From: a virus
Lineage: Duplodnaviria > Heunggongvirae > Uroviricota > Caudoviricetes
Length of the DNA: 18,343 nucleotides
Reading direction: 5' to 3' (one strand)
Virus record (IMG/VR): IMGVR_UViG_2526164601_000033
Shown here: piece after piece, positions 1,132 to 18,343 of the stretch
How positions within the stretch are numbered: position 1 is the first letter of the stretch
Layout: every line of letters starts with the position of its first letter
Notes under the pieces: generated by a model
Seen by the model: the letters and a program-made list of their open reading frames with translations, nothing else
What the model was told of the DNA's origin: nothing
The model's database searches: none
Translations under genes and position numbers: made by a program

Positions 1132-1357
1132 CTTCCAGTATCCTCTTCAAAGCAGGGTGATCTGTGGCGATCACCTCCGGCTTGTTTACCATTCCGACAA
1201 AGCGAGCTTGCGGATCCACTCGCCAGCGTCTTCCAACTTTTTTGGGGAGAGGAAATATCATTCCGGCTTTAGCGTATTTACTTAACGTACTCGGAGTTGG
1301 GACCGGTTCACTGAATTCCTCTTTTGCCCACTCAGTGAGCAGAATAAGTCTTGCCAT
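1109..1357 (-). CDS. xis: Excisionase-like recombination directionality factor (small basic protein)
   Basis: 82-aa ORF immediately upstream of int on the same strand, with a 23-bp overlap of the int start (xis-int overlap as in lambda). The call rests on position and size; no sequence match to lambda Xis is claimed. Confidence 0.55.
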   Translation of the reverse strand: MARLILLTEWAKEEFSEPVPTPSTLSKYAKAGMIFPLPKKVGRRWRVDPQARFVGMVNKPEVIATDHPALKRILEDGAPAKI

Positions 1358-1421
1358 GAGCGTCGTTCGCTAATCATGGTCGCCGCCACTATAGCTGGTG
1401 GGCAACGACCGGGGTTGAACA

Positions 1422-3893: not shown

Positions 3894-3988
3894 TTTGTTT
3901 TAACCTCATTACAGATTTCAGGGTGAACGAATCCCTGCCATTGCTGGCATTTTTAATCCGTTGGTATGGCGTTAATATGGCTGGCGGG

Positions 3989-4177
3989 TTATCCAGCCGG
4001 TATTTCGTTATTCAGGTTCAGCGATACTTTTTTTAACGGGAGGCATTCACCGGGGATTTTTTGTTCGTCCCTTACCTGAATGCAGGATGACTTACTGTCA
4101 TAAATTCCGGTAATCACATTTTGTGGCTCACCCGTTATAAGAAAAACGGTCATCACCAGTGCAAATGCTGAAGTCAC
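3989..4177 (-). CDS. ydfD: YdfD-like small membrane (lysis-type) protein
   Basis: 62-aa ORF with GTG start overlapping the dicB-like stop (GTGA) and GGAG about 9 nt upstream. N-terminal hydrophobic segment SAFALVMTVFLITGEP and C-terminal EQKIPGxC...NEIPAG resemble E. coli YdfD as recalled. It is immediately downstream of dicB, as in Qin. Confidence 0.6.
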   Translation of the reverse strand: MTSAFALVMTVFLITGEPQNVITGIYDSKSSCIQVRDEQKIPGECLPLKKVSLNLNNEIPAG

Positions 4178-4362
4178 TGCTGTTCTCCGATAATACCAAG
4201 TTCAAGAAGGGCAATTCTGGAAAGTATGGAATTATCATTGAGAAGATAAGGTTCATATTTTCTCATCTTAATGGCATCTTCCGTAAACTCCCGGTTACTG
4301 AGCAGAACACCAATATCAAAACAACCTTCAGACGTATTAACGTTTGGTAATAACGTTTCCAT
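4174..4362 (-). CDS. dicB: DicB-like cell-division inhibitor
   Basis: 62 aa from the ATG at 4362 (GAGGA about 9 nt upstream): METLLPNVNTSEGCFDIGV...FTEDAI matches the DicB N-terminus (MKTLLPNVNTSEGCFEIGV...) as recalled. The ORF track extends the frame to a GTG at 4467, probably not the true start. The gene is AT-rich. Confidence 0.7.
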   Translation of the reverse strand: METLLPNVNTSEGCFDIGVLLSNREFTEDAIKMRKYEPYLLNDNSILSRIALLELGIIGEQQ

Positions 4363-4531
4363 TATCGCGTCCTCAACAATGAATTTTGTGATGCGGTGCC
4401 TGGTGCCTCCAGGTGACGTTAACCAGTTAACAATTAACGCCGGATACAGAGAATCCACCCATAACACTGTTTTTGGTTTTAACTGTTCCGCGTGCGCTCA
4501 GCCGCATTCACCACATCACAAAATTCACTTT

Positions 4532-4589
4532 AAAAAGGGCGGCAGAGCAGTCACGGAGTAAAACTGATACCGCCAAACGTCACCAGAAA
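4532..4589 (-). ncRNA. dicF: DicF small regulatory RNA with its 3' terminator
   Basis: The reverse complement of 4532-4589 reads TTTCTGGTGACGTTTGGCGGTATCAGTTTTACTCCGTGACTGCTCTGCCGCCCTTTTT, which matches E. coli DicF as recalled, including the GGCGG/CCGCC terminator stem and U-run. It lies about 170 nt upstream of dicB on the same strand, as in Qin. Confidence 0.8.
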
Positions 4590-4922
4590 ATTGATAACAG
4601 AGGGCGTTGCAGCGGGGTTGTCACTTAAGCGTATGGTCAACCTGACAACCCGGTGTCCTCAACGGGGAAGGAATAACCCCTCCATACTTACCGCCGCGCC
4701 ATTTCGCGGATTGCCACAACCGGAAGCGCACGGTCGACGAAAATTTAACGACAGGCTATCTATGAACCAGCTACCTCGCCGTGCGCTTTCGCGTTATGGT
4801 CTGACTTTTCAGAGAAATATCCTTTCAGTAAACTGTCAGTGCCGGATGTTCACCCGTGTCCGGCGCACGCACTCCACTTCACCCGTGGAGAACTCCTTAA
4901 TTACCAACCCTCAGGAGGGTGA

Positions 4923-5156
4923 ATGTTAAAATCAACTCTTATTGCTAAATGCCTTTATCAAAATCGCATGGTAAGCAGCATTTCAATAGGCGAGTCTGCA
5001 GTTAAAAGTATTTTCGAAGAGTACTTTCCCGGGCATGATTTTAATAAATGGAATACCAAATTACCGCCAGCAGTTTCAACGCGTATTCTGAAAGCAACCG
5101 AAAGAGCAAGTACAATTCGCGTTAACTATTTCATTAAAGATTTGTGGGATCTTTGA
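4923..5156 (+). CDS. Hypothetical 77-aa protein on the strand opposite to the surrounding operon
   Basis: ATG preceded by a strong SD (AGGAGGGTGA-ATG). The ORF is AT-rich and its 3' end overlaps the 3' end of the convergent 135-aa gene by 23 bp. No recognisable family. Confidence 0.5.
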   Translation: MLKSTLIAKCLYQNRMVSSISIGESAVKSIFEEYFPGHDFNKWNTKLPPAVSTRILKATERASTIRVNYFIKDLWDL

Positions 5157-5541
5157 TATCCACAGAGCCTAAAGTATGTGCATATGGATGTGCTATTATG
5201 CGCCCTCGCAGATTTGCATCATTTTCTAAATTCACTGAACGAAACAGGGCATCAACAAGGCTCTGTACAATGCAAAGGCAATCGAAGACTGTCGCCGTTT
5301 CTGTTTTGATTGATGAAAGAACATGGCCATTCACGCAAACAGAAATTACCCGTTTATTAACATCGCTTTCCTGCTTTTGATTATCAGAACCATATAGCCC
5401 AGAAAAAGCATTGCGCACATTACGAACCATATTATCGATGGTTTCTTTTTCTGCGGTACTAAGGTCAAGAGTAGCCAGTTGTGAACGAACTATATTCGAT
5501 GCCATTTCCTGTAATGGCGTTGGTAAATCTTTAAATTCCAT
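5134..5541 (-). CDS. Hypothetical 135-aa protein with C-proximal R-x5-H-x-Y motif (possible HEPN-like fold)
   Basis: ORF with GAGG about 8 nt upstream of the ATG, AT-rich. Motif LRGRIIAHPY lies near the C-terminus. The gene is co-directional with and 22 bp downstream of the 72-aa gene. Confidence 0.55.
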   Translation of the reverse strand: MEFKDLPTPLQEMASNIVRSQLATLDLSTAEKETIDNMVRNVRNAFSGLYGSDNQKQESDVNKRVISVCVNGHVLSSIKTETATVFDCLCIVQSLVDALFRSVNLENDANLRGRIIAHPYAHTLGSVDIKDPTNL

Positions 5542-5563
5542 TATTAGCCTCGTTGGTTAGCTA

Positions 5564-5782
5564 TTAACGTGGGTATGTAATCATTCTGGCAATGCTTAAT
5601 GCCGCTGCTTTTTCCAGATTGGTGATATCCTGCTCCAGAGCGGACAGATTTTCAGCCTGCTTAGCCCTGGCTTCATTGGCCCATTTCAGGTCCTGCACCG
5701 CCTTAATTTTCTGGTGCATCCACTCATAAAGTTCATCATCGGTATAGTCTGGCGCGATGATGACGGGGTCTCGTTTCTGCAT
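5564..5782 (-). CDS. Hypothetical 72-aa protein (positional equivalent of ydfC in Qin)
   Basis: ATG with a strong SD (AAGGAG, 6 nt spacing). Same size and relative position as ydfC in the Qin dicB operon; sequence identity to YdfC not verified. Confidence 0.55.
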   Translation of the reverse strand: MQKRDPVIIAPDYTDDELYEWMHQKIKAVQDLKWANEARAKQAENLSALEQDITNLEKAAALSIARMITYPR

Positions 5783-5854
5783 GTCGGCTCCTTGTGGTTA
5801 GCGTTGCCTGCTTTTTAACCACGTCAGGCGAGGTGGTATCCTCTGAGGGGTCTG

Positions 5855-6211
5855 TTACTCGAGAGGAAATTGGTTATGAATACAATCAAGTTTTCTTGCC
5901 CAGAATGTGGTGGCTAAGTCTTTGACACATCCTTTAAGCCGCAGGGCTCTGACAGTTTCGCGGGAGCCATCTGCAAAAATTGTGGTCACCTTGTAACTGA
6001 AGATGAGTCCTCGCAGTTCGATGACGAAATCGTTGACAATATCTTCGGTGCACTCACCAGAGACTTTCTGAAGTAAAGGCGCATACCGCTTAGTTACCGC
6101 TCTGATAACTCTTACCTGTCCGGCAATGGCGCTGATATCAATATAAAGCGCCATCGCTGTTTCTTTGCTGATCCCTGGACGCCTTCCATTCTGATGTTTG
6201 ACTTCGCCCAC
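5855..6211 (-). CDS. Hypothetical 118-aa protein, first gene downstream of the OL-like region
   Basis: ORF with GTG start preceded by AGAGGA 8-13 nt upstream; an internal ATG (residue 20) is an alternative start. No recognisable motif. Confidence 0.4.
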   Translation of the reverse strand: MGEVKHQNGRRPGISKETAMALYIDISAIAGQVRVIRAVTKRYAPLLQKVSGECTEDIVNDFVIELRGLIFSYKVTTIFADGSRETVRALRLKGCVKDLATTFWARKLDCIHNQFPLE

Positions 6212-6289
6212 TGAGAAATCCTCTGCTTCCCCTTAACGCCGGGTAGCGGAACTGTTTGCTGAGAACACCGTGCGGTGTCTTGATGAGTA

Positions 6290-6345
6290 GAATTTAGAAT
6301 AGCCTAAGAGTTATGGTCAAGCTTTTTGTGTAGAAAAACCTAAGC
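6290..6345. promoter_or_regulatory. OL-like operator/promoter cluster downstream of the repressor gene
   Basis: TTAGAATAGCCTAA at 6294-6307 and, on the minus strand, TTAGGTTTTTCTAC (plus 6330-6343) share the TTAG-N6-CTAA/C pattern of the repressor-proximal operators; the second is one mismatch from the OR site TTAGGTTTCTCTAC. A leftward -35-like TTGACC (plus 6315-6320) sits between them. Confidence 0.4.
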
Positions 6346-6418
6346 TTCTTGATGTAAAAAACACAAGTATTTGAAAGTTTGTGCTTTTTATTACAGAGAG
6401 TTGCGAAAAAAAGGGGGG

Positions 6419-6826
6419 TTATTTATTTGCGCTTCTTTTGCGAGCTTTGAGTAGTTCTTCAAAAAGTTTGTTGAAATTCTCAACTCGAGCACGCATCTCT
6501 GACAACAGAGCCTTTTGCTCTGACTCAGGCAGTGCGTCGAACAGTTGAAGCAACTCTTTTTGATCTTCTGTCAGATTGACTGGCTGATTATCTGGGATCG
6601 GTTCGCCTGGTTGCTTATCTTCATCTCCAAAAAGAAGCCAAGTCGGCGAGCACTGAAGCGCCTGGCTCAGTGCGAATAATCTCTTCCCCGCTGGCTGTGT
6701 TTCATCTCTTTCCCATTGAGAAATTGTTACGTGAGCCACTTTGACCAGCTTACCTAATGCGGCCTGAGACAGTTTTAATTTTTTTCGCCTGTATAAGAGG
6801 CGAGCACCGAAGGTTTCGTTTTTCAT
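6419..6826 (-). CDS. dicA: DicA-like HTH (XRE/CI-type) prophage repressor
   Basis: 135-aa ORF. The HTH segment SQAALGKLVKVAHVTISQWE and the blocks QCSPTWLLFGDEDKQP, LFDALPESEQ and EMRARVENFNKLFEELLKAR match E. coli DicA as recalled. It is divergent from a Cro-like gene across an operator-bearing intergenic region. Confidence 0.85.
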   Translation of the reverse strand: MKNETFGARLLYRRKKLKLSQAALGKLVKVAHVTISQWERDETQPAGKRLFALSQALQCSPTWLLFGDEDKQPGEPIPDNQPVNLTEDQKELLQLFDALPESEQKALLSEMRARVENFNKLFEELLKARKRSANK

Positions 6827-6827
6827 A

Positions 6828-6892
6828 TTAGGTAATTCTAATTTTTCTTGACTTAGGTTTCTCTACGATCTAGTTTCCTTAGGAAAATCTAA
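6828..6892. promoter_or_regulatory. OR-like operator region: three TTAG-N6-CTAA/C inverted repeats between divergent repressor and cro-like genes
   Basis: Sites TTAGGTAATTCTAA (6828-6841), TTAGGTTTCTCTAC (6853-6866) and TTAGGAAAATCTAA (6879-6892), spaced about 25-26 bp centre to centre. Rightward -35-like TTGACT at 6848-6853. Leftward -10-like TAGAAT (plus 6835-6840) ends 8 nt before the repressor ATG, suggesting a leaderless or near-leaderless repressor mRNA. Confidence 0.5.
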
Positions 6893-6902
6893 GGGGTTCG
6901 AT

Positions 6903-7130
6903 ATGTTGAAAATTGATGCTATAGCGTTTTTTGGCAGCAAAACAAAGCTTGCCAATGTCGCAGGAGTTAGGCTGGCAAGCGTTGCTGCATGGGGGGAACT
7001 GGTTCCTGAAGGTCGCGCGATGCGCCTGCAAGAGGCATCCGGCGGGGAACTTCAGTACGACCCCAAAGTTTATGACGAATATCGTAAGGCAAAGCGGGCG
7101 GGGCGGTTGAACAATGAAAATCACCACTGA
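6903..7130 (+). CDS. dicC: Cro-like HTH regulator (DicC/YdaS family)
   Basis: 75-aa ORF with AAGGGG about 8 nt upstream. Divergent partner of the DicA-like gene; block GRAMRLQEASGGELQYDPKVYDEYRK resembles DicC as recalled (less certain than the DicA recall). Confidence 0.75.
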   Translation: MLKIDAIAFFGSKTKLANVAGVRLASVAAWGELVPEGRAMRLQEASGGELQYDPKVYDEYRKAKRAGRLNNENHH

Positions 7131-7665
7131 ACAGGTTTGTGAGGCTCTGGATACCTGGGTATGCCGACCAGGAATGACACAGGAGCAGGCGACGATATTA
7201 ATCACGGAAGCATTCTGGGCTCTGAAAGAACGCCCGAACATCGATGTTCAACGCGTCACGTTTAATGATGGCGAGGTTGATCAACGGGCGCTGGGCGTTA
7301 ACCGGGTGAAGATATTCGAACGCTGGAAAGCTATCGACACCAGAGATAAGCGTGACAAATTCACGGCGCTGATTCCGGCAATTATGGAGGCTATCCGGAT
7401 CAGCGATTTCAGATTGTATTGTGAAATTACTGACGGAAAAAGCATTACGTACATGATCGCCGGGTTAAACAAAGAATATGGCGATGTGGTGGAGTCCGGG
7501 CTGCTTTTTGCGGATCCAGTTGTTGTGGAACGTGAGACTGACGAGCTTATAGAAAAAGCTATTGCTTTCAAGCACGCGTATCGTCAGCAATACCAATATT
7601 ACTTTGCAGATAAACAAATGTCTGCCAGGGGTTCGTATGAGTATCGATGCACTACGATGGGCTAA
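7114..7665 (+). CDS. YdaT-like (CII-position) protein
   Basis: 183-aa ORF overlapping the cro-like stop, at the position occupied by ydaT/cII-type genes in Rac-like prophages. The family assignment is by synteny and loose recollection only. Confidence 0.45.
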   Translation: MKITTEQVCEALDTWVCRPGMTQEQATILITEAFWALKERPNIDVQRVTFNDGEVDQRALGVNRVKIFERWKAIDTRDKRDKFTALIPAIMEAIRISDFRLYCEITDGKSITYMIAGLNKEYGDVVESGLLFADPVVVERETDELIEKAIAFKHAYRQQYQYYFADKQMSARGSYEYRCTTMG

Positions 7666-8677
7666 AAAGGTGAAAACCGGCAGTTCATCCAGTAAGTCAG
7701 TATTGACCTGGCTTGCTGATATGTGCGGTGCCGATTTGTGTGCATACCCGTCTGTATCTGCACTGGCAGAAGTAACGGAACTGAACAAAAAGACTGTGCA
7801 GGACAGCTTACGACACCTGATGGAGATTGGGTTAATTGTTGATACCGGTGAGAGAAAAGGCAGAACAAAGCAAATTGTGGTGTACCGACTTATCGGTGTA
7901 GAAGAAAGTGTTGCCGAGCCTGAATACACCCAAAAACGGGAGTCTTTAAAGGTGGGTAAAATTGGTGCTGTTAATAAAAACAGTACCGAAAATGGTTATG
8001 TTTCAGCACAAAACAGACCCAAAAACAGAACTCTTAGCTGCATGGAAAATAACCAAAGACACCCAAATTTTCCATCAAAGACACCCAAAAACGGATCACG
8101 GAACCCAAAGGAACCCAAAGATCTAAACCCCACACATAACGCACGCGAGAGTGCTCCGACCAGTGAGCAGGAAGTTTTGTCGTTACAGGCAGCCCCCCCT
8201 GTATTCCTGTATGGCCTGAGCGAACCCATCGGAAAATTCCCGATGAGCGATAGCTGGTATCCGTCACGGGATTTTCGACGACGGGCTGCGTTGTGGGGGA
8301 TGGCTTTGCCGGAGACAGAATTTACACCTGCTGAACTTGCCGCCTTCCGGGACTACTGGGCAGCGGAGGAGAAAGTGTTTACGCAGATTCAGTGGGAGCA
8401 GAAATTCGCCCGTCACGTAAATCACGTCAGGGCGCAGGTTAAACCAGTCAGCAAAGGGGTAAACCATGCAGCAGCACCAGGTGGCACCGCATCACGGGCA
8501 GTTCAGGAAATTCGGGCAGCACGTGAGCAGTGGGAACGTGAAAACGGATTTATCAGCGACGGAAACGGCCTGGAAGCTGTGGGAACTCATGGGGGTGGTT
8601 TATTCGAACCGCTGGATCCAGAAGAACGGGGCCGCACCTTCGAAGCTCTGGATTGCACAGATTGGCGCGATGACTGA
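7637..8677 (+). CDS. Replication initiation protein (N-terminal HTH, C-terminal DnaT-like domain)
   Basis: Start set to the ATG at 7637 (AGGGG 6 nt upstream; MSIDALRWAKKV...) rather than the track start 7562, which lies inside the upstream gene. The C-terminal block SDSWYPSRDFRRRAALWG...FTPAELAAFRDYW is DnaT-like as recalled. Confidence 0.7.
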   Translation: MSIDALRWAKKVKTGSSSSKSVLTWLADMCGADLCAYPSVSALAEVTELNKKTVQDSLRHLMEIGLIVDTGERKGRTKQIVVYRLIGVEESVAEPEYTQKRESLKVGKIGAVNKNSTENGYVSAQNRPKNRTLSCMENNQRHPNFPSKTPKNGSRNPKEPKDLNPTHNARESAPTSEQEVLSLQAAPPVFLYGLSEPIGKFPMSDSWYPSRDFRRRAALWGMALPETEFTPAELAAFRDYWAAEEKVFTQIQWEQKFARHVNHVRAQVKPVSKGVNHAAAPGGTASRAVQEIRAAREQWERENGFISDGNGLEAVGTHGGGLFEPLDPEERGRTFEALDCTDWRDD

Positions 8678-9131
8678 GCAGCAAATCCGGCAGGTCTGCC
8701 GCCAGTGCATGGACCGCTGCCGGGCGGGTGAAACATGGCCTCCGGACCTGGCTGAGTTTGTGGCACTGATTTCGAAAAGCGGAGCCAATCCATTCGGTCT
8801 GACGGTGGATGCTGTGATGGAGGAGTACCGCCGCTGGCGCAATGAGTCCTGGCGATACGACGGAAGTGATAAGTACCCGTGGTCTCAGCCTGTGCTGTAT
8901 CACATTTGCCTCGAGATGCGTTCAAAGGGGATTGAGCGCCAGATGACCGAAGGGGAATTAAAACGGCTTGCAGAACGGCAACTGACGAAATGGGCAAAGC
9001 ATGTTAGTAACGGCCTGAGCGTTCCGCCAGTCCGGCGACAACTGGCGGCCCCCAAACGCCCGTCGGGGCCAACGCCAATTGAGTTGCTGAAACAGGAATA
9101 TGAACGCCGGAAAGCGGCTGGTTTTGTTTGA
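8466..9131 (+). CDS. Lambda P-like replication protein (helicase loader); start uncertain
   Basis: The C-terminal half parallels lambda P as recalled (YPWS...MTEGELKRLAERQL versus YPWK...LTDAELRRKAADEL). The longest ORF overlaps the upstream gene by 212 bp. Alternative in-frame ATGs at 8592 and 8670; the latter forms an ATGACTGA start/stop overlap. Confidence 0.6.
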   Translation: MQQHQVAPHHGQFRKFGQHVSSGNVKTDLSATETAWKLWELMGVVYSNRWIQKNGAAPSKLWIAQIGAMTEQQIRQVCRQCMDRCRAGETWPPDLAEFVALISKSGANPFGLTVDAVMEEYRRWRNESWRYDGSDKYPWSQPVLYHICLEMRSKGIERQMTEGELKRLAERQLTKWAKHVSNGLSVPPVRRQLAAPKRPSGPTPIELLKQEYERRKAAGFV

Positions 9132-9164
9132 GTTGAGAAGTGATTTTTTACCGGGAGGAAATTT

Positions 9165-9899
9165 ATGGAGACTGTTTTTGACGCACTGAAAGCGATGGGA
9201 AAAGCCACGTCGGTAGAGCTGGCTGCGCGACTTGATATCAGTCGTGAAGAAGTACTGAACGAGCTGTGGGAACTGAAAAAGGCTGGCTTCGTTGATAAAA
9301 GCGTATACACCTGGCGTGTGGCTGATAACAACGTTCAGCAGGAACAGCCAGCGCCAGAAGAAACCACCACGGCAACAGAAGCGAAAATCTCAGAGTGCGA
9401 TTTAACCGCGACGATTGAACAACGCGGACCACAAACGGCGGATGAACTGGCTACGCTGTTCGGTACAACATCCCGCAAAGTTGCTTCAACGCTGGCAATG
9501 GCAATCAGCAAAGGTCGTCTGATTCGCGTAAACCAGAACGGTAAAATTCGTTACTGCATACCAGGTGATAATTTACCAGCAGAGCCGAAAGTTGAATCGG
9601 TAGCGGAAACCGATGGTAAAGCCTTTCCTCAGCCAGCCGGTGTTGCGTTACCGGTACAGAAAGATGCAACACAGGAAGATATTAAAACAGAAACTGTGGC
9701 GGACATTGTGCAGTCGCTGCCATCGTTTACTGCAACGCGAGAAGATGATTTGATTTTGCCATCGCTGCATATGGCAAATCGCGAACTGCGTAGGGCGAAG
9801 AATCATGTCCAGAAGTGGGAGCGAGTCTGCGCCGCGCTGCGGGAGCTGAACAAGCACCGGGATATGGTTGCCGGGATTTGTCGGAAGTCCGGGCAATGA
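9165..9899 (+). CDS. Hypothetical phage protein with N-terminal winged-helix-like region (DUF1627-like)
   Basis: 244-aa ORF with GGGAGGAAA SD. The N-terminus ([30 protein letters not shown]) looks like a winged-helix segment. DUF1627 is a loose recollection, not verified. Confidence 0.55.
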
Positions 9900-10060
9900 G
9901 CGGATGGTGCAGGCCTGAAATCATGATACTAACAATGAAGGTAAAATGCATCGGCAGTCTGATTGGTCGTAGTGAGGCGGCGGTCAGGATGAAAGCCCAG
10001 GTTAAGGGAATAAGCCTGATTCTGCGGGGTGATTTTCACCAGTCAACAAAATATCCGTAG
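9896..10060 (+). CDS. Hypothetical 54-aa protein, possibly translationally coupled
   Basis: ATG overlaps the upstream stop (ATGA at 9896-9899). No recognisable motif; short. Confidence 0.3.
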
Positions 10061-10569
10061 CGCGATAACGGTCAAAAATTATGGCGCTGACACTTTTGTG
10101 CCACTGGAGATGACTGTACCTAAGTTCAGGGGAGAAGAACACGTCCGGTGGGATGGTCGGGCCAGATTTAAAGGGCAGGTCATGGCTCCAGCCTGTACGC
10201 TGGCAATGGAGGCTGCCTGGCGGGAAATTGATATGGGAACCACGCCACTCAGGGATTTACTGCCGGTCCAGAGAATAAATTCCTGTTACGGTTACACCAC
10301 TGTGATCTTGCAAGTGCAGGAAAGTAGGTCTACACGGTAACGCGAGTGCGTGTAACTTTTGATGTCATTCCCGTAGAAACACCGGACAAATTTTCGCTGA
10401 CAGGTCATGCAGAAGGTATAAATCTGCAGATTATGGACAATTACGGATATCCGGCAAGAGCCGGAAAAAGCATGCCGCCTCTAATTCTCAGTGGAAGATG
10501 GACTTGATTATACTCATTGCATTGTCAGAAATAGTTATCCATTAAAGGCTGGCTATTCCAAACAGGATG

Positions 10570-10591
10570 TTGATTACAAAAATGTAATCAA
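10570..10591. promoter_or_regulatory. Perfect palindrome TTGATTACA-N4-TGTAATCAA in the promoter region of the binding-protein gene
   Basis: 9-bp perfect inverted repeat with a 4-bp AAAA spacer in an AT-rich intergenic region about 170 bp upstream of the ATG at 10759. -10-like TATAAT at about 10620. Confidence 0.45.
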
Positions 10592-10758
10592 CATGTAAGG
10601 TTTATACTCTTCAATATGCGTATAATTTTCCTTATTTTGTTGACTTTAAATAACAAGCTATGCACGAGGTAAAGTCGGATAAGTTTATCTGGATGTAATA
10701 TATATTATTTGTAGTGTTTATAACTTTATTTCATGATAACCAATAAAAGGAGTTTTTT

Positions 10759-11517
10759 ATGAGGAACATAATGGCAGGTTTTTTAATATTCCTGTCTTCT
10801 GCTGCTTATGCTGATATCAATCTGTATGGTCCTGGTGGCCCGCATACAGCCTTGCTTGATGCAGCCAAACTTTATGCCGAAAAAACAGGTATTATAGTGA
10901 ACGTTCATTACGGCCCACAGAACAAATGGAATGAAGATGCCAAAAAAAATGCAGATATCTTGTTTGGCGCATCAGAACAATCTGCTCTGGCTATCATTCG
11001 GGACCATAAAGACAGCTTCAGTGAAAAAGATATTCAGCCTCTTTATCTGCGAAAAAGTATTTTACTGGTAAAGAAAGGTAATCCTAAAAATATCCGGAGT
11101 ATTGACGACCTGACCAGACCTGGGATTGGCGTAATTGTTAATGATGGTGGTGGTACCAGTAATACATCAGGCACTGGCGTCTGGGAAGATATTGCCGGAC
11201 GTAAAGGGAATATAGAAACTGTCGCCGCAATCCGAAAAAATATTATTTTATATGCGCCCAATAGCGGAACTGCACGTAAGGCTCTTGAGAATCAGCCTGG
11301 AGCAGATGTCTGGATAACCTGGGCTGACTGGGCAGCCAGTAATCCAGAAATTGGTGATGTCGTGGAAATAGCGCCAGACTACGTGATATGGCGTGATATG
11401 AACATTACAGTACGTCAGGATGCAAATGATGAAACCCGTCGATTTGCAGAATGGCTACAAACCGATGAAGCGGCGCCTGCATTCAAAAAATATGGCTGGA
11501 CCAGGAAAGGCACTTGA
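10759..11517 (+). CDS. Periplasmic solute-binding protein, ModA-like (molybdate/tungstate/sulfate-type PBP2 fold), with signal peptide
   Basis: 252-aa ORF with AAAGGAG SD. N-terminal signal-like MAGFLIFLSSAAYA. The blocks ADILFGASEQ, SILLVKKGNPKNI and C-terminal AEWLQTDEAAPAFKKYGW parallel E. coli ModA (ADLFISADQ, SLVVVAPKAS, YDYLKGPQAAEIFKRYGF) as recalled. The gene is AT-rich. Confidence 0.8.
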   Translation: MRNIMAGFLIFLSSAAYADINLYGPGGPHTALLDAAKLYAEKTGIIVNVHYGPQNKWNEDAKKNADILFGASEQSALAIIRDHKDSFSEKDIQPLYLRKSILLVKKGNPKNIRSIDDLTRPGIGVIVNDGGGTSNTSGTGVWEDIAGRKGNIETVAAIRKNIILYAPNSGTARKALENQPGADVWITWADWAASNPEIGDVVEIAPDYVIWRDMNITVRQDANDETRRFAEWLQTDEAAPAFKKYGWTRKGT

Positions 11518-11520
11518 CAT

Positions 11521-11549
11521 CCTCGTCCTTCAGGACGTGGATTCTTTTT
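11521..11549 (+). terminator. Possible intrinsic terminator after the binding-protein gene
   Basis: Imperfect stem CCTCGTCCT / AGGACGTGG followed by ATTCTTTTT. One mismatch in the stem and the T-run is offset. Confidence 0.35.
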
Positions 11550-11852
11550 CCGGATGCCGCGCCAGCGGCATGTAGGGGCAGCTCACAAAACGGAAAAAAT
11601 TGTACGCTAAGCCTCGCCAGGTGAACTGAATTCATTCCGATATGGGAATTCCCATATCGGGCGAAAACGGTTTGCTGTAACGGCAGAGTTAAGTAGGATT
11701 GCTGCGGGTGCTTGAGGCTATCTGCCTCGGGCATGAACACCAACGGCAGATAGATAAAAGCCCCACCCGACTATAAATCGAAGTGAGGCCCCTATATGCT
11801 CGTCACATATAGATTGCCTCTTACGGACCGAAAGGTCAAGGAGAAGCAGGCT

Positions 11853-12008
11853 ATGAAGCAGCAAAAGGCGATGTTAATCGCCCTGATCGTCATCTGTTTA
11901 ACCGTCATAGTGACGGCACTGGTAACGAGGAAAGACCTCTGCGAGGTACGAATCCGAACCGGCCAGACGGAGGTCGCTGTCTTCACAGCTTACGAACCTG
12001 AGGAGTAA
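11853..12008 (+). CDS. hokD: Hok/Gef-family membrane toxin (type I toxin-antitoxin toxin)
   Basis: 51-aa product MKQQKAMLIALIVICLTVIVTALVTRKDLCEVRIRTGQTEVAVFTAYEPEE matches HokD/RelF as recalled. AAGGAG SD. A long structured leader lies upstream, with palindromes at 11637-11660 and 11792-11812. Confidence 0.85.
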   Translation: MKQQKAMLIALIVICLTVIVTALVTRKDLCEVRIRTGQTEVAVFTAYEPEE

Positions 12009-12076
12009 GAGACCAGGCGGGGGAGAAATCCCTCGCCACCTCTGATGTGTCAGGCATCCTCAACGCACCCGCACTT

Positions 12077-12105
12077 AACCCGCTTCGGCGGGTTTTTGTT
12101 TTTAT
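12077..12105 (+). terminator. Rho-independent terminator downstream of hok
   Basis: Stem AACCCGC / GCGGGTT with TTCG loop, followed by TTTTTGTTTTT. Confidence 0.6.
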
Positions 12106-12116
12106 TTTCAACGCGT

Positions 12117-12146
12117 TTGAAGTTCCGGACGGCGCCGGAATAGAAT
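12117..12146 (+). promoter_or_regulatory. Promoter-like element with a palindrome in the spacer
   Basis: -35-like TTGAAG (12117-12122), 18-bp spacer containing the inverted repeat TTCCGG...CCGGAA, -10-like TAGAAT (12141-12146). Placed after the hok terminator and upstream of the Rem-like gene. Confidence 0.35.
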
Positions 12147-12228
12147 CAAAAATACTTAAGTAGCGCGCAGGGAGAAGAGGGATGGACCCCGAACAGGGGA
12201 GTGCTATTTATCTGGAAGGATTCTGTTG

Positions 12229-12486
12229 ATGAGAATCGAAGAATTACGTGAAATTTTTAGTGAAGGTGGCCTCTATACTGTGCGCGTTGAGAAGGGCGCT
12301 ATTGTCAGCCACTGCCGTATTAAATGTTTACAGTCTCAACAAAGGAAGAGTGGAGCTGCGTTAATTCATTTTGTGGATGGGCTTGTGACGGATGGTTTTA
12401 TTTTGCGTGCAAATGAATTTGTCACATCGTTGCCGTCTCTGAAAGAAGCTGGGATTAAGGCTGGTTTTTCTGCTTTTGAAGATTAG
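12229..12486 (+). CDS. Rem-like hypothetical protein (positional equivalent of rem in Qin)
   Basis: 85 aa from the ATG at 12229 (the track start 12226 is TTG). Sits immediately downstream of hokD and upstream of a DUF968-like gene, matching the hokD-rem-ydfU order of Qin. Sequence identity to Rem not verified. Confidence 0.5.
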   Translation: MRIEELREIFSEGGLYTVRVEKGAIVSHCRIKCLQSQQRKSGAALIHFVDGLVTDGFILRANEFVTSLPSLKEAGIKAGFSAFED

Positions 12487-12555
12487 TGAATTCATCTACA
12501 ATTCAGCGCAGGGCTGAACCCCTGTTGAGTAACACTGTGCCACCGGAGAAAGCCG

Positions 12556-12834
12556 ATGGCGCAAAATTCCAGACTACACAATTCTGATAATTCAGCCGTC
12601 TTTGCCAGCAGGCACGGGCGGCGTTCTCATGCATTCAAATCTGACTGGTTCCGGCACGCCCCATGCACTGAAGAACAGGCCGAATGGCTGATTCAGAACT
12701 ACCGCAGACGTGGGTATGAGTTTAGGAAAGCCCTCAGCCTCGATTATCGTCACTGGATAATCTACGTCAGGCTGCCGTACTCCGAGCGCCCACCGCGTCC
12801 GTCCCGCACATTCCAGCAACGCATCTGGAGGTAA
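12556..12834 (+). CDS. Hypothetical 92-aa basic protein
   Basis: ATG with GGAGAAAG SD. Arg/His-rich; no recognisable family. Confidence 0.45.
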   Translation: MAQNSRLHNSDNSAVFASRHGRRSHAFKSDWFRHAPCTEEQAEWLIQNYRRRGYEFRKALSLDYRHWIIYVRLPYSERPPRPSRTFQQRIWR

Positions 12835-12835
12835 C

Positions 12836-13891
12836 GTGCGGGTATTACTTCGACCTGTTCCGGTACCGGAACTTGGGTTGGTGGTCCTTAAACCAGGCCG
12901 TGAATCCATGCAGGTATTCCATAACCCTCGAGTGCTTGTGGAGCCGGAACCGAAAAGCATGCGCGGTCTGCCGTCCGGCATCGTCCCTGCCGTTCGCCAG
13001 CCGCTGGCGGAGGATAAATCATTACTGCCGTTTTTCAGCAATGAGCGTGTGATTCGTGCTGTTGGTGGCGCTGGTGCACTGTCTGACTGGCTGTTGCGTC
13101 ATGTCAAATCCTGCCAGTGGCCTCATGGTGACTATCATCACAGTGAAACCGTTATTCACCGTTATGGTACCGGCGCAATGGTGTTGTGCTGGCACTGCGA
13201 CAACCAGCTGCGTGACCAGACATCCGAATCACTCGAGCAACTTGCTCATCAAAACCTGTCAGCATGGATGATTGACGTCATCGGTCACGCAATAAGCGGT
13301 ACGCAGGAGCGTGAATTATCTCTGGCTGAATTATCCTGGTGGGCGGTCCGCAATCAGGTGGCGGACGCGCTACCGGAAGCGGTATTACGTCGTTCGCTGG
13401 GGTTGCGTGCGGAAAAAATCCGCTCAATGTACCGTGAAAGCGACATCGTACCGGGAGAGCAGACCGCCACCATCATACTGAAGCAGCGCACAAAAAATCT
13501 TGCGCCGCTGCCTCACGCCCACCAGCAAAACCCGCCACAGGAAAAGACGGTGGTCAGCATTGCCGTTGATCCGGAGTCACCGGCTCAGTATCTCCAGCGC
13601 CAGAAACCACAACGGGAAGAGATGCCTGTATACACGCGCTGGGTAAAAACGCAGAAATGCATGACGTGCGGTAATCAGGCAGATGATCCGCATCACATCA
13701 TTGGTCATGGACTGGGAGGGATGGGAACAAAGGCTGATGATTTGTTTGTTATTCCGCTGTGCCGTAAATGTCATAACGAACTGCACGCTGGGGTAAAAGA
13801 TTTTGAAGAAAAACACGGCAGCCAGCTGTTGTTGCTGATTCGTTTTTTAATGCACGCGAGAAATTCGGGTGTCCTGAAGTGGAAAGCATGA
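12836..13891 (+). CDS. DUF968-like (YdfU-like) protein with C-terminal Cys/His zinc-binding-type motif
   Basis: GTG start with a strong SD (TGGAGGTAAC-GTG); alternative ATG at 12908. The C-terminus carries KCMTCGN...HHIIGHG...CRKCHNELH. The family call is by recollection of nin-region proteins. Confidence 0.65.
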   Translation: MRVLLRPVPVPELGLVVLKPGRESMQVFHNPRVLVEPEPKSMRGLPSGIVPAVRQPLAEDKSLLPFFSNERVIRAVGGAGALSDWLLRHVKSCQWPHGDYHHSETVIHRYGTGAMVLCWHCDNQLRDQTSESLEQLAHQNLSAWMIDVIGHAISGTQERELSLAELSWWAVRNQVADALPEAVLRRSLGLRAEKIRSMYRESDIVPGEQTATIILKQRTKNLAPLPHAHQQNPPQEKTVVSIAVDPESPAQYLQRQKPQREEMPVYTRWVKTQKCMTCGNQADDPHHIIGHGLGGMGTKADDLFVIPLCRKCHNELHAGVKDFEEKHGSQLLLLIRFLMHARNSGVLKWKA

Positions 13892-14257
13892 ATGACTGAA
13901 CGGATAGAATTTGTTTTGCCTTACCCGCCGACGGTGAATACCTACTGGCGACGTCATGGCAATACGTATTTCATCTCGGAAGCCGGAAAGCGTTATCGCC
14001 GTGATGTGGCGCTAATTGTTCGCCAGCAGCGGCTGAAATTAAACCTGTCCGGAAGGCTGGTGATAAAGATTATTGCAGAGCCACCGGATAAGCGCCGTCG
14101 TGACCTGGACAATATCCTGAAAGCACCACTGGATGTGCTGACGCATGCCGGACTTCTCATAGACGACGAGCAGTTTGATGAAATCAATATTGTGCGCGGT
14201 CAGCTCGTTCCTGGTGGGCGGCTGGGGATAAAAATCACAGAACTGGAGTGCGCATGA
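13892..14257 (+). CDS. rusA: RusA Holliday-junction resolvase
   Basis: 121-aa ORF. The blocks LPYPPTVNTYWRRHGN and DKRRRDLDNILKAPLDVLTHAGLLIDDEQ parallel E. coli RusA ([45 protein letters not shown]) as recalled. Confidence 0.9.
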   Translation: MTERIEFVLPYPPTVNTYWRRHGNTYFISEAGKRYRRDVALIVRQQRLKLNLSGRLVIKIIAEPPDKRRRDLDNILKAPLDVLTHAGLLIDDEQFDEINIVRGQLVPGGRLGIKITELECA

Positions 14258-14475
14258 ATAACCACTATTTACAGTTTGTGCGTGAGCAGCTCATTATCGC
14301 CACCGCTGATTTGAGTGGGGCAACAAAAGGTCAGCTTGAAGCCTGGCAGGAGAATGCCATGTTCGATACAGGGCGTTACAGGCGAAAAAAAATCCGGTAC
14401 CGCGATGAAGTGACTGGAAAAATGATAACGCGGGATAATCCACCAATCGTTATTATCCTGCGCCCGGCCCTTTAG
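14254..14475 (+). CDS. Hypothetical 73-aa protein; 3' end runs 10 nt into the first tRNA
   Basis: ATG at 14254 overlaps the rusA stop (ATGA), with GGAG 5 nt upstream. The stop codon TAG at 14473-14475 lies inside the tRNA. It occupies the position where a late antiterminator Q gene would be expected but is too short for one. Confidence 0.35.
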   Translation: MNNHYLQFVREQLIIATADLSGATKGQLEAWQENAMFDTGRYRRKKIRYRDEVTGKMITRDNPPIVIILRPAL

Positions 14476-14541
14476 CTCAGTGGTGAGAGCGAGCGACTCA
14501 TAATCGCCAGGTCGCTGGTTCAAATCCAGCAAGGGCCACCA
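14466..14541 (+). tRNA. tRNA-Ile2-like (anticodon CAU; Met cannot be excluded from sequence alone)
   Basis: Manual cloverleaf: acceptor GGCCCTT/AAGGGCC, D-arm GCTC-AGTGGTGA-GAGC, anticodon loop CTCATAA, T-arm GCTGG-TTCAAAT-CCAGC, encoded CCA. Resembles E. coli ileX-type tRNA as recalled. Confidence 0.8.
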
Positions 14542-14542
14542 A

Positions 14543-14618
14543 CCGCCACTAGCCATCAGGAAAGAGCGTCAACCCTTTAAGTTGAGTGTGCGAGGTTCGA
14601 GTCCCCGGTGGTGGTCCA
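14543..14618 (+). tRNA. tRNA-like sequence, degenerate (possible pseudo-tRNA); predicted anticodon loop CCTTTAA
   Basis: Acceptor CCGCCAC/GTGGTGG (one G-U pair) plus encoded CCA and a canonical GGTTCGAGTCC T-loop. The D-stem has only two Watson-Crick pairs (GCCA versus GAGC), the T-stem has an A-C mismatch, and position 33 is C rather than U. Confidence 0.4.
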
Positions 14619-14631
14619 TTATCGGTATTCT

Positions 14632-14705
14632 GCGTTGTTAGCTCAGCAGGACAGAGCAATTGCCTTCTAAGCAATCGGTCACTGGTTCGACTCCAGTACA
14701 ACGCG
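14632..14705 (+). tRNA. tRNA-Arg (anticodon UCU, reads rare AGA)
   Basis: Manual cloverleaf: acceptor GCGTTGT/ACAACGC, D-arm GCTC-AGCAGGAC-AGAGC, anticodon stem ATTGC/GCAAT with loop CTTCTAA, T-arm ACTGG-TTCGACT-CCAGT. CCA is not encoded. Confidence 0.8.
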
Positions 14706-14721
14706 CTACACTTATTTTCCC

Positions 14722-14746
14722 GGCTCGCTTTTGCGGGCCTTTTTTG
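14722..14746 (+). terminator. Rho-independent terminator after the tRNA cluster
   Basis: Stem GGCTCGC / GCGGGCC (one G-U pair) with TTTT loop, followed by TTTTTTG. Confidence 0.6.
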
Positions 14747-14788
14747 TATCTGCGCCACGCCCGGCGCATACCAACCACAGAGCCTTTC

Positions 14789-14798
14789 GGGGGGGGGG
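14789..14798. repeat. G10 homopolymer tract
   Basis: Ten consecutive G at 14789-14798, about 80 bp upstream of the TerB-like start codon. Confidence 0.9.
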
Positions 14799-14880
14799 AG
14801 CTTACGGAGTGGTCAGTGTGACTTTCTCTGTGGGCAGATCGCTCCCGGGCGTTGGCTCACCCACCCAAAGGAACGTCACG

Positions 14881-15313
14881 ATGTTTGGTATTTTTGGTAA
14901 AAAAAGCCCGCAGAGCGGCAACGGAAATTAAAAAGTTTGAAAAACGCGATCTGGCACAGGTGGTGATTAACGCCGCCTACCTGGTGGCCTGTGCAGATGG
15001 TGAATGTGAGGCTTCCTAGAAAGCGAAGATCGAACAGGTACTGCGTAATCAGCCTGCGCTGTACGCGTTTACGTCAGAAATTAATGCGATTAGCGCAACC
15101 ATTATCGGTCAGCTGGATACGAACTTTAAAACTGGTCGTCGTGCGGCGTTACGTGAGATCGAGGATGTGAAACACGATACGCGTGAAGCGGAAGATGTGC
15201 TGGATGTGGCGGTGGCCATTGCGGAGGCAGACGGCGAAATTGAGCCGGAAGAGCGCAAGGTGCTGGAAGAGATTGCCGGTGTTCTGGGTCTTCGTCTGGA
15301 GAATTACCTGTGA
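14881..15313 (+). pseudogene. TerB-like (tellurite-resistance TerB family) gene disrupted by a frameshift in an A7 tract and an in-frame TAG
   Basis: ATG at 14881 (AAGGAA SD) reads MFGIFGKKSPQSGNGN then stops at 14929-14931. The +1 frame from about 14906 continues ...FEKRDLAQVVINAAYLVACADGECEAS-TAG(15017-15019)-KAKIEQVL...AVAIAEADGEIEPEERKVLEEIAGVLGLRLENYL, ending at 15311-15313. The ADGE..EE motifs are TerB-like as recalled. The frame change maps to the A7 run at 14899-14905. Confidence 0.6.
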
Positions 15314-15477
15314 CGGTAAAACTGCGCCTGACTGTGGCTGCACTCCTGCTGTTTCTGGTGGTGATGGTGGATTTCACCAGCAGAATCATGTCGGTGCTGG
15401 CGGATGGGGTGCTGGTCTGCGGCATTATGGTATTGCTGTGGCCGGTGATAAAAAGAAACAGCCTGCATAATGCTTGA
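15310..15477 (+). CDS. Possible small membrane protein (55 aa, GTG start overlapping the TerB-like stop)
   Basis: The frame reads VTVKLRLTVAALLLFLVVMVDFTSRIMSVLADGVLVCGIMVLLWPVIKRNSLHNA with two hydrophobic segments. GTGA start/stop overlap and no clear SD, so weak. Confidence 0.3.
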   Translation: MTVKLRLTVAALLLFLVVMVDFTSRIMSVLADGVLVCGIMVLLWPVIKRNSLHNA

Positions 15478-15643
15478 TTTTTTGTTTGCTGTTTATTAAA
15501 AACACTTCTGCATGGTGAATCCCCCTGTGCGGAGGGGCGATCAGCAACCAGGTATATGGGATAATCGCGGATTCAGGTGCTGATACTGAATTCACCGGGA
15601 GGCACCCGGCACCATGCAAGAAAAAGAATGTGCATGCAAACAT

Positions 15644-15667
15644 GCCCCTCTCCGGAGGGGCTTTTTT
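15644..15667 (+). terminator. Rho-independent terminator in the intergenic region upstream of the esterase gene
   Basis: Stem GCCCCTC / GAGGGGC with TCCG loop, followed by TTTTTT. Confidence 0.55.
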
Positions 15668-15794
15668 ATGGGTAAAAAATGCCCGAATGGGTTCGGGCAA
15701 CAGCATGAGATACTGATATTGTTGTGTTGTTATCGTGTGGATTTTAACCAGGGTTTATCAGGCTGCGCAACTGCGTGGCCTTTTTTCATTTCTT

Positions 15795-15839
15795 GGGCTG
15801 TAGTCCCCGTGTGTCATTCAGGCTTCCGGACTACAGCCC
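15795..15839. repeat. 12-bp perfect inverted repeat (GGGCTGTAGTCC ... GGACTACAGCCC) with 21-nt spacer
   Basis: Arms at 15795-15806 and 15828-15839, about 45 bp upstream of the esterase ATG. Confidence 0.6.
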
Positions 15840-15882
15840 ACTCCATATCTGATTTAATACACTATCCCGGCCGGGAGGAATA

Positions 15883-16824
15883 ATGACATTTAAACATTAT
15901 GATGTTGTCAGGGCGGCGTCGCCGTCAGATCTTGCGGAAAAGCTGACACATAAACTGAAAGAGGGCTGGCAGCCGTTTGGTAGTCCGGTGGCCATAACCC
16001 CTTATACTCTGATGCAGGCGATTACAGCAGAAGGTGATGTGGTGGTCAGTGGTGCAACTGAGCCGGATTGGTACTACGTCATCGTACTGGCCGGGCAGTC
16101 CAATGCCATGGCTTACGGTGAAGGGCTTCCGCTGCCGGATTCATACGATGCTCCGGATCCGCGCATTAAACAGCTGGCGCGCCGCAGTACAGTGACGCCG
16201 GGTGGGGCTGCCTGCAGATATAACGATATTATTCCGGCCGACCACTGCCTGCATGATGTGCAGGATATGAGTACGCTGAATCATCCGAAGGCAGACCTGA
16301 GCAAAGGGCAGTACGGCTGTGTCGGCCAGGGGTTACATATTGCCAAAAAACTGCTCCCGTATATCCCGAATAACGCGGGGATCCTGCTGGTACCATGCTG
16401 TCGTGGTGGTTCGGCATTTACCCAGGGCGCGGAGGGGACATTCAGTGCGGACACGGGGGCCAGCCAGGATTCGGCGCGCTGGGGTGTGGGTAAACCGTTA
16501 TATCAGGACCTGATTGCGCGCACCAAAGCTGCATTACAGAAGAACCCGAAAAATGTGTTGCTGGCGGTGTGCTGGATGCAGGGAGAGTTTGACATGAGCG
16601 CCGCCACCCACGCACAGCAACCTGCGCTGTTTACAGCCATGCTGACACAGTTTCGTGCTGACCTCTCCGTGTTTAACGCGCAGTGCCATGGTGGCAGTGC
16701 TGCAGATGTGCCGTGGATTTGTGGTGACACGACGTATTACTGGAAAAATACCTACGGCACCCAGTACACCGGGAAAGCAATCGCTGGCGAAGGTGACGTC
16801 AATTCCTCTGGTCAGTCCGGTTGA
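15883..16824 (+). CDS. Sialate O-acetylesterase-like protein (NanS-p-like: N-terminal DUF1737-like segment plus SGNH/SASA esterase domain), apparently truncated
   Basis: 313-aa ORF with GGGAGG SD. Motif LAGQSNAMAYGE (the GQSN block of SGNH/SASA esterases) and WMQGEFD (WxQGESD-like). Synteny with prophage nanS-p paralogues downstream of the tRNA cluster in lambdoid/Stx phages; those are usually much longer. Confidence 0.75.
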   Translation: MTFKHYDVVRAASPSDLAEKLTHKLKEGWQPFGSPVAITPYTLMQAITAEGDVVVSGATEPDWYYVIVLAGQSNAMAYGEGLPLPDSYDAPDPRIKQLARRSTVTPGGAACRYNDIIPADHCLHDVQDMSTLNHPKADLSKGQYGCVGQGLHIAKKLLPYIPNNAGILLVPCCRGGSAFTQGAEGTFSADTGASQDSARWGVGKPLYQDLIARTKAALQKNPKNVLLAVCWMQGEFDMSAATHAQQPALFTAMLTQFRADLSVFNAQCHGGSAADVPWICGDTTYYWKNTYGTQYTGKAIAGEGDVNSSGQSG

Positions 16825-17263
16825 GTTTTCGACATCATCGTGGCGGCGGGCTGTTCTGTCTCTTGAAGAACATCATAAAGCCTGGTTGTTGTGGTGTTAC
16901 AGCGGGAGTATTTGTTGGGAATATCAGATCGCGATAACACAGTGGGCGTGGAATGAATTTAATACTCAATCCGGTACCAGAAAAATTGCTGGGAAAACGC
17001 AGGAACGCCTGAAAAAATTAATCTGGCTGGCGGCGCAGGCAGTAAAAGCAGAACTTTTTGGTGGGGAAGGTTATGAATATCAGGAGCTGGCATTACTGGC
17101 GGGAGTGACAACTAAAAACTGGTCCAAAACATTTACTCGTCACTGGGTTGCAATGAAACACATTTTTCACCGACTGGATAGTGAGGCTTTATTATTTGTA
17201 ATGAGAACACGTTCAAAACAAAAGGCGGCATTTTCAAAGCAATGTGTTGCAAAAGTAGATTGA
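16825..17263 (+). other. Open reading frame without a credible start, in a different phase downstream of the esterase stop (possible frameshifted C-terminal remnant)
   Basis: The track ORF 16655-17263 is stop-free for 202 codons but has no ATG with an SD after 16824. The part upstream of 16824 is the alternate frame of the esterase gene. Confidence 0.3.
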
Positions 17264-17326
17264 AAGGCATATATTTCATGCAAATCTGATATTTTGCCGA
17301 TTTTGTACGTGATGGCAAAAGCAAAC

Positions 17327-17354
17327 AAAACCCGCCCACAAGCGGGTTTTGTTG
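17327..17354 (+). terminator. Rho-independent terminator (hairpin plus T-run)
   Basis: Stem AAAACCCGC / GCGGGTTTT with CCACAA loop, followed by GTTGT. An A-run precedes it, so it could act in both directions. Confidence 0.6.
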
Positions 17355-17500
17355 TGCCACTTATCTCGGATAGACATGGTGAATGCGCTGGTGGAGGAGA
17401 TAAGGGTGATTTTTGTATGCTTGCAACATTGATTTCGTAACACACCATTTACGGGGCGTACAAAAACAGGGAGAGTGAGGGCGTTTATTTTGTGCCCTTC

Positions 17501-18343
17501 ATGACAGACGGTAACGGCGTCAATACCGCCACTAACGCGCCGGCAGAAGATCCGGATATTCCGGCATCAGGATATTACGGTGCGGCATCGAGAACGAATG
17601 GAAACCAGGTATCATCAAACCGCCCGACACATTTCAGTTCATGGGCGCGCAGGAGCATTATTCCGGATCGTCTGGCAACCGCTATTCTGAACGCAGCCGG
17701 GCGCACCTCAGCCTTCATCAGTGGTAAGGCACCGGAAATCAAACCCTCGCCCGGCGGCAACACGCCATCGGGTCCGTCTGCAGATACGTCCGTTCGCACA
17801 ATCTCCCTGCTGCCGGCAGCCGGAGAGGCTGCTGCGCAGGGCTGGAGCATTAAGGATGGCGGAATTCAGTTGTCGGGTGGTGTATTTAAGATCACCAAGC
17901 AGAGCAATAAAACCTGGTCCCTGACGCATCCGGTGGATGACGCAATTACCCTGCTGACACAGGGCGGCAGACTGACCTGTAAGTTCCGCCTGTCAGGCGC
18001 ACTGACCAACAATCAGTTCGGGCTGGGGATTTATCTGTATACGGATGCTCCCGTTCCTGATGGTGTGGCGATGACGGGTACCGGTAATCCGTTCCTGATG
18101 TCGTACTTCACTCAGACCACTGACGGCAGAGTGAATCTGATGCATCACAGGAAAGCCGGAAACACGAAGCTGGGGGAGTTCGGCGATTACGGTAACGACT
18201 GGCAGACGCTGGAGCTGGTGTTCACCGCCGGCAGTGCCACGGTTACTCCGAAACTGAATGGAGTGGCTGGCCCGGCATTCCAGGTTATAAAAGACAGTCT
18301 GACACTGGGACTGAATGCGCTGACGCTGACGGATGTTACAAAA
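17501..18343 (+). CDS. Hypothetical protein, 3'-truncated by the window end (beta-rich, Gly/Thr-rich)
   Basis: Manual translation from the ATG at 17501 runs 281 codons to the window end without a stop. It is absent from the ORF track, presumably because no stop falls inside the window. An in-frame GTG at 17492 is an alternative start. No family recognised. Confidence 0.5.
   Translation, partial: MTDGNGVNTATNAPAEDPDIPASGYYGAASRTNGNQVSSNRPTHFSSWARRSIIPDRLATAILNAAGRTSAFISGKAPEIKPSPGGNTPSGPSADTSVRTISLLPAAGEAAAQGWSIKDGGIQLSGGVFKITKQSNKTWSLTHPVDDAITLLTQGGRLTCKFRLSGALTNNQFGLGIYLYTDAPVPDGVAMTGTGNPFLMSYFTQTTDGRVNLMHHRKAGNTKLGEFGDYGNDWQTLELVFTAGSATVTPKLNGVAGPAFQVIKDSLTLGLNALTLTDVTK

Follow-up and report, generated by a model that had tools for sequence, protein, structure and literature searches.

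In Stx phages such as 933W the late region is arranged in the order Q, pR′, tR′, tRNA genes (ileZ-argN-argO), cargo and lysis genes. The antiterminator Q loads on RNA polymerase paused just downstream of pR′, and the Q-modified polymerase then passes tR′ as well as later terminators, through which the tRNA, cargo, lysis and morphogenesis genes are reached (textbook knowledge; PMC9388147). Q proteins comprise three unrelated families, one of which, the Q82 family, corresponds to PF06323 (PMC9388147). Phage 82 Q serves as the prototype of this family.

The DNA analysed here, referred to as the window, is a stretch of 18,343 nt, and its prophage is found again, 99.7-100% identical, in the nearest closed genomes. 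These PPompW-type prophages (LC567822 and similar) of O26 and other EHEC/EPEC strains, including the closed DEC9B, 11368 and PEC240, resemble the window at this level over 18 kb, and the likeness covers int, paa, hokD, rusA, Q, the tRNAs and the esterase gene. In the closed relatives the next gene after rusA measures 690 bp and is annotated as "bacteriophage antitermination protein Q" (229 aa). Behind it lie a 195-bp spacer, tRNA-Ile, tRNA-Arg, a terB pseudogene, a DUF3927 gene, the gene of a 617-aa SASA esterase and a holin gene. Their Q belongs to Pfam PF06323, which it matches over positions 2-218 of 220. This is the same element order as in the 933W-type layout, including tRNA-Ile(CAT) and tRNA-Arg downstream of the late promoter. 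However, stx genes are lacking, Q is of the Q82 family and the middle tRNA is degenerate. The PPompW-type prophage has been deposited many times with an intact Q (99.9% identity), and the same Q module is found at 97-98.5% in two records named as phage isolates. In the sibling strain DEC9B, whose genome is closed, the prophage shows the normal order, with an intact Q followed by a complete lysis and morphogenesis operon. Compared with these descriptions, nothing in the window departs from known systems.

An earlier note on this DNA had stated that only a 73-aa ORF separates rusA from the tRNAs, that it overlaps the first tRNA by 10 nt, and that a full-length Q is absent from this position. All of this agrees with the ORF and ARAGORN coordinates: the ORF is the only one in the interval, the overlap with the first tRNA (start at 14466) is exactly 10 nt, and the place is the one at which the nearest relatives have the 690-bp Q gene and the 195-bp spacer. 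The features concerned are as follows.

13892-14257, plus strand: rusA (121 aa), the last gene of block A; an ORF with Pfam RusA in the record's gene table, annotated RusA in relatives
14254-14475, plus strand: 73-aa ORF, Q residues 1-65 followed by VIILRPAL (ORF call and comparison with the DEC9B Q)
14254-14448, plus strand: 5′ Q fragment, codons 1-65, at the end of block A; identical to DEC9B Q residues 1-65, PF06323 positions 2-62 of 220 (E = 2e-19)
16769-17263, plus strand: 3′ Q fragment, codons 66-229 and stop; identical to DEC9B Q residues 66-229, PF06323 positions 59-217 of 220 (E = 2e-65)

The 73-aa ORF starts at an ATG (14254) that overlaps the rusA stop codon and ends at a TAG within the first tRNA, the codons of the last eight residues (VIILRPAL) being taken from the 17-nt tRNA leader and nucleotides 1-7 of the tRNA itself. 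It is not a chance ORF, as its residues 5-65 match Pfam Phage_antiter_Q at positions 2-62 of 220 (E = 2e-19). Q is cut exactly after codon 65, and the remainder of the gene lies downstream in the window. When 14254-14448 and 16769-17263 are rejoined, the encoded protein is 100% identical to the 229-aa Q of DEC9B. The two fragments score 70.5 and 221.2 bits against PF06323, where the gathering cut-off is 25. Jointly they span the entire profile, but neither alone spans the domain, and no single ORF of the window covers the approximately 220 positions, compared with positions 2-218 in the intact relatives. No start codon belongs to the 3′ fragment itself, whose frame is open upstream to a GTG at 16655 within esterase sequence. 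This gives a 202-aa ORF (16655-17263) in which Q residues 66-229 come after 38 out-of-frame esterase residues, and this ORF matches PF06323 positions 59-217.

The predicted 73-aa product is thus a truncated form of a canonical 229-aa late antiterminator of the Q82 family and not a small regulator. The earlier note had considered that a very small, non-canonical regulator might be used in place of Q, and had proposed a comparison of the 73-aa protein with the Q families. The comparison returned the N-terminal part of the Q82-family profile only, and no full-length small antiterminator. That the ATG is coupled to the rusA stop, as is the start of the full-length gene, would suit a functional small protein. 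The product is, residue for residue, the N-terminal 28% of the 229-aa Q with eight read-through residues from the tRNA, the exact 73-aa product is on record nowhere, and all relatives encode the full-length Q; a functional substitute for Q is therefore very improbable. Among the ORFs tested, PF06323 was the sole antiterminator family matched at E ≤ 0.01, with no Pfam match to Q-lambda (PF03589) or Q21 (PF06530). A search of solved structures returned no Q structure of the Q82 family, the only match being a weak one to the phage lysin Ply (1xov, E = 5.5e-4). Because the 5′ fragment represents 28% of the domain and the 3′ fragment lacks its own start, a functional Q is, on the predicted reading frames, not something that can be made from the window as written.

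The arrangement behind this was resolved by blastn of the window against three closed relatives, including those labelled L001 and L004. The relatives share an order of four blocks, A-B-C-D, whereas the window reads A-C-B-D:

1-14448: block A, through Q codon 65; L001 up to 5249
14449-16768, plus strand: block C (2,320 bp), L001 5922-8149; lies after block B in relatives
16769-17441, plus strand: block B (673 bp), L001 5250-5922; Q codons 66-229 and a 178-bp spacer, 673/673 identical to DEC9B
17442-18343, plus strand: block D, L001 8150-9051; 3′ part of the esterase gene, ending 1 nt before the contig end
14448-14449: junction J1 (block A/block C), blunt with a 1-nt ambiguity (blastn against L001 and L004)
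16768-16769: junction J2 (block C/block B), blunt (blastn)
17441-17442: junction J3 (block B/block D), blunt (blastn)
15883-16824, plus strand: 313-aa ORF, residues 1-295 of the SASA/DUF1737 esterase followed by 18 residues of out-of-frame Q

Block A is 100% identical to the DEC9B sequence over its 14,448 nt. Block C holds the tRNAs, the terB pseudogene, the DUF3927 gene, the STnc100 and AgvB sRNAs and esterase codons 1-295. The displaced 3′ part of Q and its spacer are located inside the sialate-esterase gene, so the order A-C-B-D splits both Q and the esterase gene, and the late promoter region ends up after the tRNAs. Un-permuting the window restores collinearity with the relatives (blastn). 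When 15883-16768 is joined to 17442-18343 an open esterase frame of 596 codons results, and apart from the breaks neither Q nor the esterase gene contains any further mutation. The PPompW-type prophages thus differ from the window in having an intact Q and the order A-B-C-D, and also in lacking a 0.5-kb AgvB-containing patch at 15533-16057.

The earlier note had taken its observation to suggest that the late-regulation module had been deleted or replaced. In favour of this, nothing between 14449 and the tRNAs resembles the rest of Q or a promoter. The missing 673 bp are however present at 16769-17441, 100% identical to the relatives, and the ORFs tested contain no match to another antiterminator family. 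Loss of the module, or its exchange for a different one, is accordingly close to impossible. The comparison with intact relatives that had been suggested for locating a deletion junction revealed a block swap instead of a deletion. A deletion junction as the cause can be dismissed, with the DNA in question found in block B.

The displaced block also carries candidates for the elements expected downstream of Q, and the tRNAs remain with block C:

17264-17441, plus strand: Q-tRNA spacer (178 bp) at the end of block B; joins Q to the tRNAs in relatives
17247-17275, plus strand: candidate pR′ (TTGCAA, 17-nt spacer, TATATT), overlapping the Q stop codon (consensus scan)
17324-17353, plus strand: candidate tR′, a perfect 12-bp hairpin (consensus scan and inverted-repeat search)
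14466-14541, plus strand: tRNA with a CAT anticodon (ARAGORN, Rfam; annotated tRNA-Ile in relatives)
14543-14618, plus strand: tRNA-like element, Lys-TTT (ARAGORN only)
14632-14706, plus strand: tRNA-Arg (TCT) (ARAGORN, Rfam)
14722-14745, plus strand: terminator-like hairpin with T-run 3′ of the tRNAs (consensus scan only)

The TTGCAA-17-TATATT site and the 12-bp hairpin are candidates for pR′ and tR′, as judged from consensus match and position. The 5′ Q fragment still adjoins rusA, and the candidate promoter (17247-17275) and hairpin (17324-17353), both of them consensus matches only, follow the displaced 3′ fragment. On these matches the gene, coming after rusA, would be followed by the promoter-like site, then the hairpin and the tRNAs, an order of the lambdoid late-control type. 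Unlike in other Q82-family modules, the gene of the window is severed behind codon 65, with 2.3 kb between the cut and the 3′ part. As written, the candidate late promoter comes after the tRNAs, the sRNAs and the first half of the esterase gene. The middle tRNA-like element falls below the Rfam gathering score and is unannotated in the closest closed genomes. Since other prophage variants carry a second tRNA-Arg in the tRNA cluster, the element at 14543-14618 is probably a decayed second Arg (argN-like) tRNA.

The window is the final 18.3 kb of the draft contig AIGO01000025.1 (152,062 bp, GCA_000249975.2), with identical sequence, which rules out an edited or synthetic stretch. AIGO00000000 is the draft of E. 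coli DEC9E, an stx-negative O26:H11 strain of ST29 (PMC5592225), and possible sequencing or assembly errors in this draft have been noted (PMC5592225). The window ends (18343) 1 nt before the end of the contig and inside the esterase gene, which indicates that the assembly broke in a multicopy gene approximately 0.9 kb past the last junction. The three junctions are located 0.9-3.9 kb from the contig end. Per genome, the esterase gene occurs in 4 places at the median and 10 at the maximum, the tRNA-to-esterase block in up to 16, and a Q of the window's type in up to 5 (related strains). A second DEC9B prophage (L005, 2180894-2192213) carries relBE, hokD, DUF968 and rusA followed by a frameshifted antiterminator gene, with no annotated tRNAs. 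This antiterminator gene has no DNA similarity to block B, but the terB, DUF3927 and esterase region is otherwise near-identical, which makes the late regions highly repetitive within one genome.

The permutation is exact, with zero bases gained or lost, a 1-nt ambiguity (C) at two of the joints and microhomology of ≤ 1 nt. No direct or inverted repeats and no target duplication were found at the junctions. Likewise, no IS element or transposase was found, blocks B and C holding only Q, tRNA, terB, DUF3927 and esterase sequence. None of the hallmarks of a transposon- or IS-mediated move was found at the locus: no terminal inverted repeats, no target-site duplication and no transposase within or beside the moved block. 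CCCGGG and AACGTT sites are located at two of the breakpoints, and they look coincidental. J1, J2 and J3 are each absent from 5,426 complete E. coli genomes, in which 120-nt junction probes reached a best coverage of 50-65%, i.e. one side only. The exact J1 string is furthermore absent from species-representative genomes and metagenome contigs, the exact J2 string from species-representative genomes and the exact J3 string from metagenome contigs. Only contig AIGO01000025.1 is on record as encoding the 313-aa J2 fusion product.

That the fragments belong to one Q gene, that the blocks are permuted, and that this permutation is unique and sits at the end of a contig are observed facts. An assembly cause, rather than a biological one, is our inference: the A-C-B-D order is probably a misassembly in which two short blocks were mis-ordered at the end of the contig. 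This reading is preferred because the swap is unique, sits at a contig end in multicopy DNA and has no simple biological route, and because the broken genes are pristine. None of the junctions occurs in any independent assembly of the collections scanned, and all of them are near the contig end in multicopy sequence. Blocks B (673 bp) and C (2.3 kb) together measure 2,993 bp, a size at which we would expect read-pair ordering to be unreliable. The closed genome compared is that of the sibling DEC9B and not of DEC9E itself; it has the normal order, and the real DEC9E chromosome would then carry an intact Q, as DEC9B does. Against a misassembly it can be said that assemblers normally join sequences via real overlaps, and the step that would abut these blocks bluntly cannot be named with certainty. 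The A/B and C/D breakpoints match no obvious population-level mosaic boundaries, with no sign of them at common boundaries when the best place per record is considered. In addition, block C is native apart from an internal patch, so that the blocks were not simply borrowed from another prophage, and the junctions are known from assembled sequence, not from reads.

The swap could alternatively be real in DEC9E, as a very recent illegitimate rearrangement that moved the 673-bp block with the 3′ part of Q and pR′ into the esterase gene. The sequence is after all that of a deposited public record, with junctions that contain no Ns and carry no provable assembler signature, and disruption of regulators is common in prophage decay. 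Such a move could proceed, for example, by excision of blocks B and C as a 3-kb circle, which would be opened at the B/C joint upon reinsertion. It would inactivate both Q and the esterase, and the late genes would be expressed only with a Q of the same specificity supplied in trans from another prophage. Such a supply is conceivable considering that, in related strains, these Q genes are found in up to 5 places per genome. Nevertheless, a conservative three-breakpoint permutation without homology, IS elements or recombinase sites has no simple biological mechanism. The arrangement is moreover a singleton among all collections searched, it falls in multicopy DNA less than 4 kb from where the contig ends, and Q and the esterase gene are otherwise perfect. 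We regard a genuine rearrangement, the main alternative, as possible but somewhat doubtful. If true, it would add one more defective prophage, in which Q and the esterase are inactivated and the late promoter no longer drives the tRNAs and sRNAs, and its interest would be local, limited to the DEC9E strain. A still bolder view of the same move, in which the 673-bp block is a mobile cassette whose programmed, reversible relocation turns late expression off and on, as a lysogeny switch working through a repeat-free recombination mechanism, is barely credible.

Misassembly, the favoured explanation, also bears on the suggestion in the earlier note that the prophage may be defective for late gene expression. 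This stands in part: as written, the prophage has no Q of its own, but the "defect" may not exist in the organism, because a single draft contig, at its end, is the only place where the arrangement is seen. The case is mainly a caution: the apparent loss of Q in this O26:H11 prophage is a property of that one contig, and not evidence for a new regulator or a deleted module. A survey that grades prophages as intact or inducible on the basis of draft assemblies would mistake this one for Q-negative.

Block C was further compared with its copy in DEC9B. It is native to the prophage next to J1 as well as J2, and the differences are internal only. A G10 run (14789-14798) in the window corresponds to G8 in the DEC9B copy, and a T-run at about 15477 is one base shorter than in that copy; these homopolymer differences could be sequencing errors or real slippage. 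The 0.5-kb patch at 15533-16057 is missing from DEC9B's copy of the prophage and from other close relatives, and matches another DEC9B prophage as well as lambdoid prophages of other strains at 98.6-99.3%. Its source is either mosaic exchange at this site or the collapse of repeats into one consensus. The patch and the homopolymer differences lend weak support to a poorly resolved region. An origin of the whole of block C from a paralogous prophage was rejected by difference mapping, the foreign part being the internal patch only. Two sRNAs are annotated in this part of the block:

15481-15673, plus strand: STnc100 sRNA (Rfam)
15674-15735, minus strand: AgvB, the anti-GcvB sponge sRNA (Rfam), within the patch 15533-16057

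The TerB-family gene of block C (approximately 14885-15313) carries an internal stop, as it does in all close relatives, whose annotation lists it as a pseudogene; an intact 55-aa DUF3927 gene (15310-15477) comes next. Cargo was also found in the early region of the window, comprising paa (10759-11517), encoding an AcfC-family adhesin, the hokD/sok toxin-antitoxin pair (11706-12008) and the DicF sRNA on the minus strand (4537-4588).
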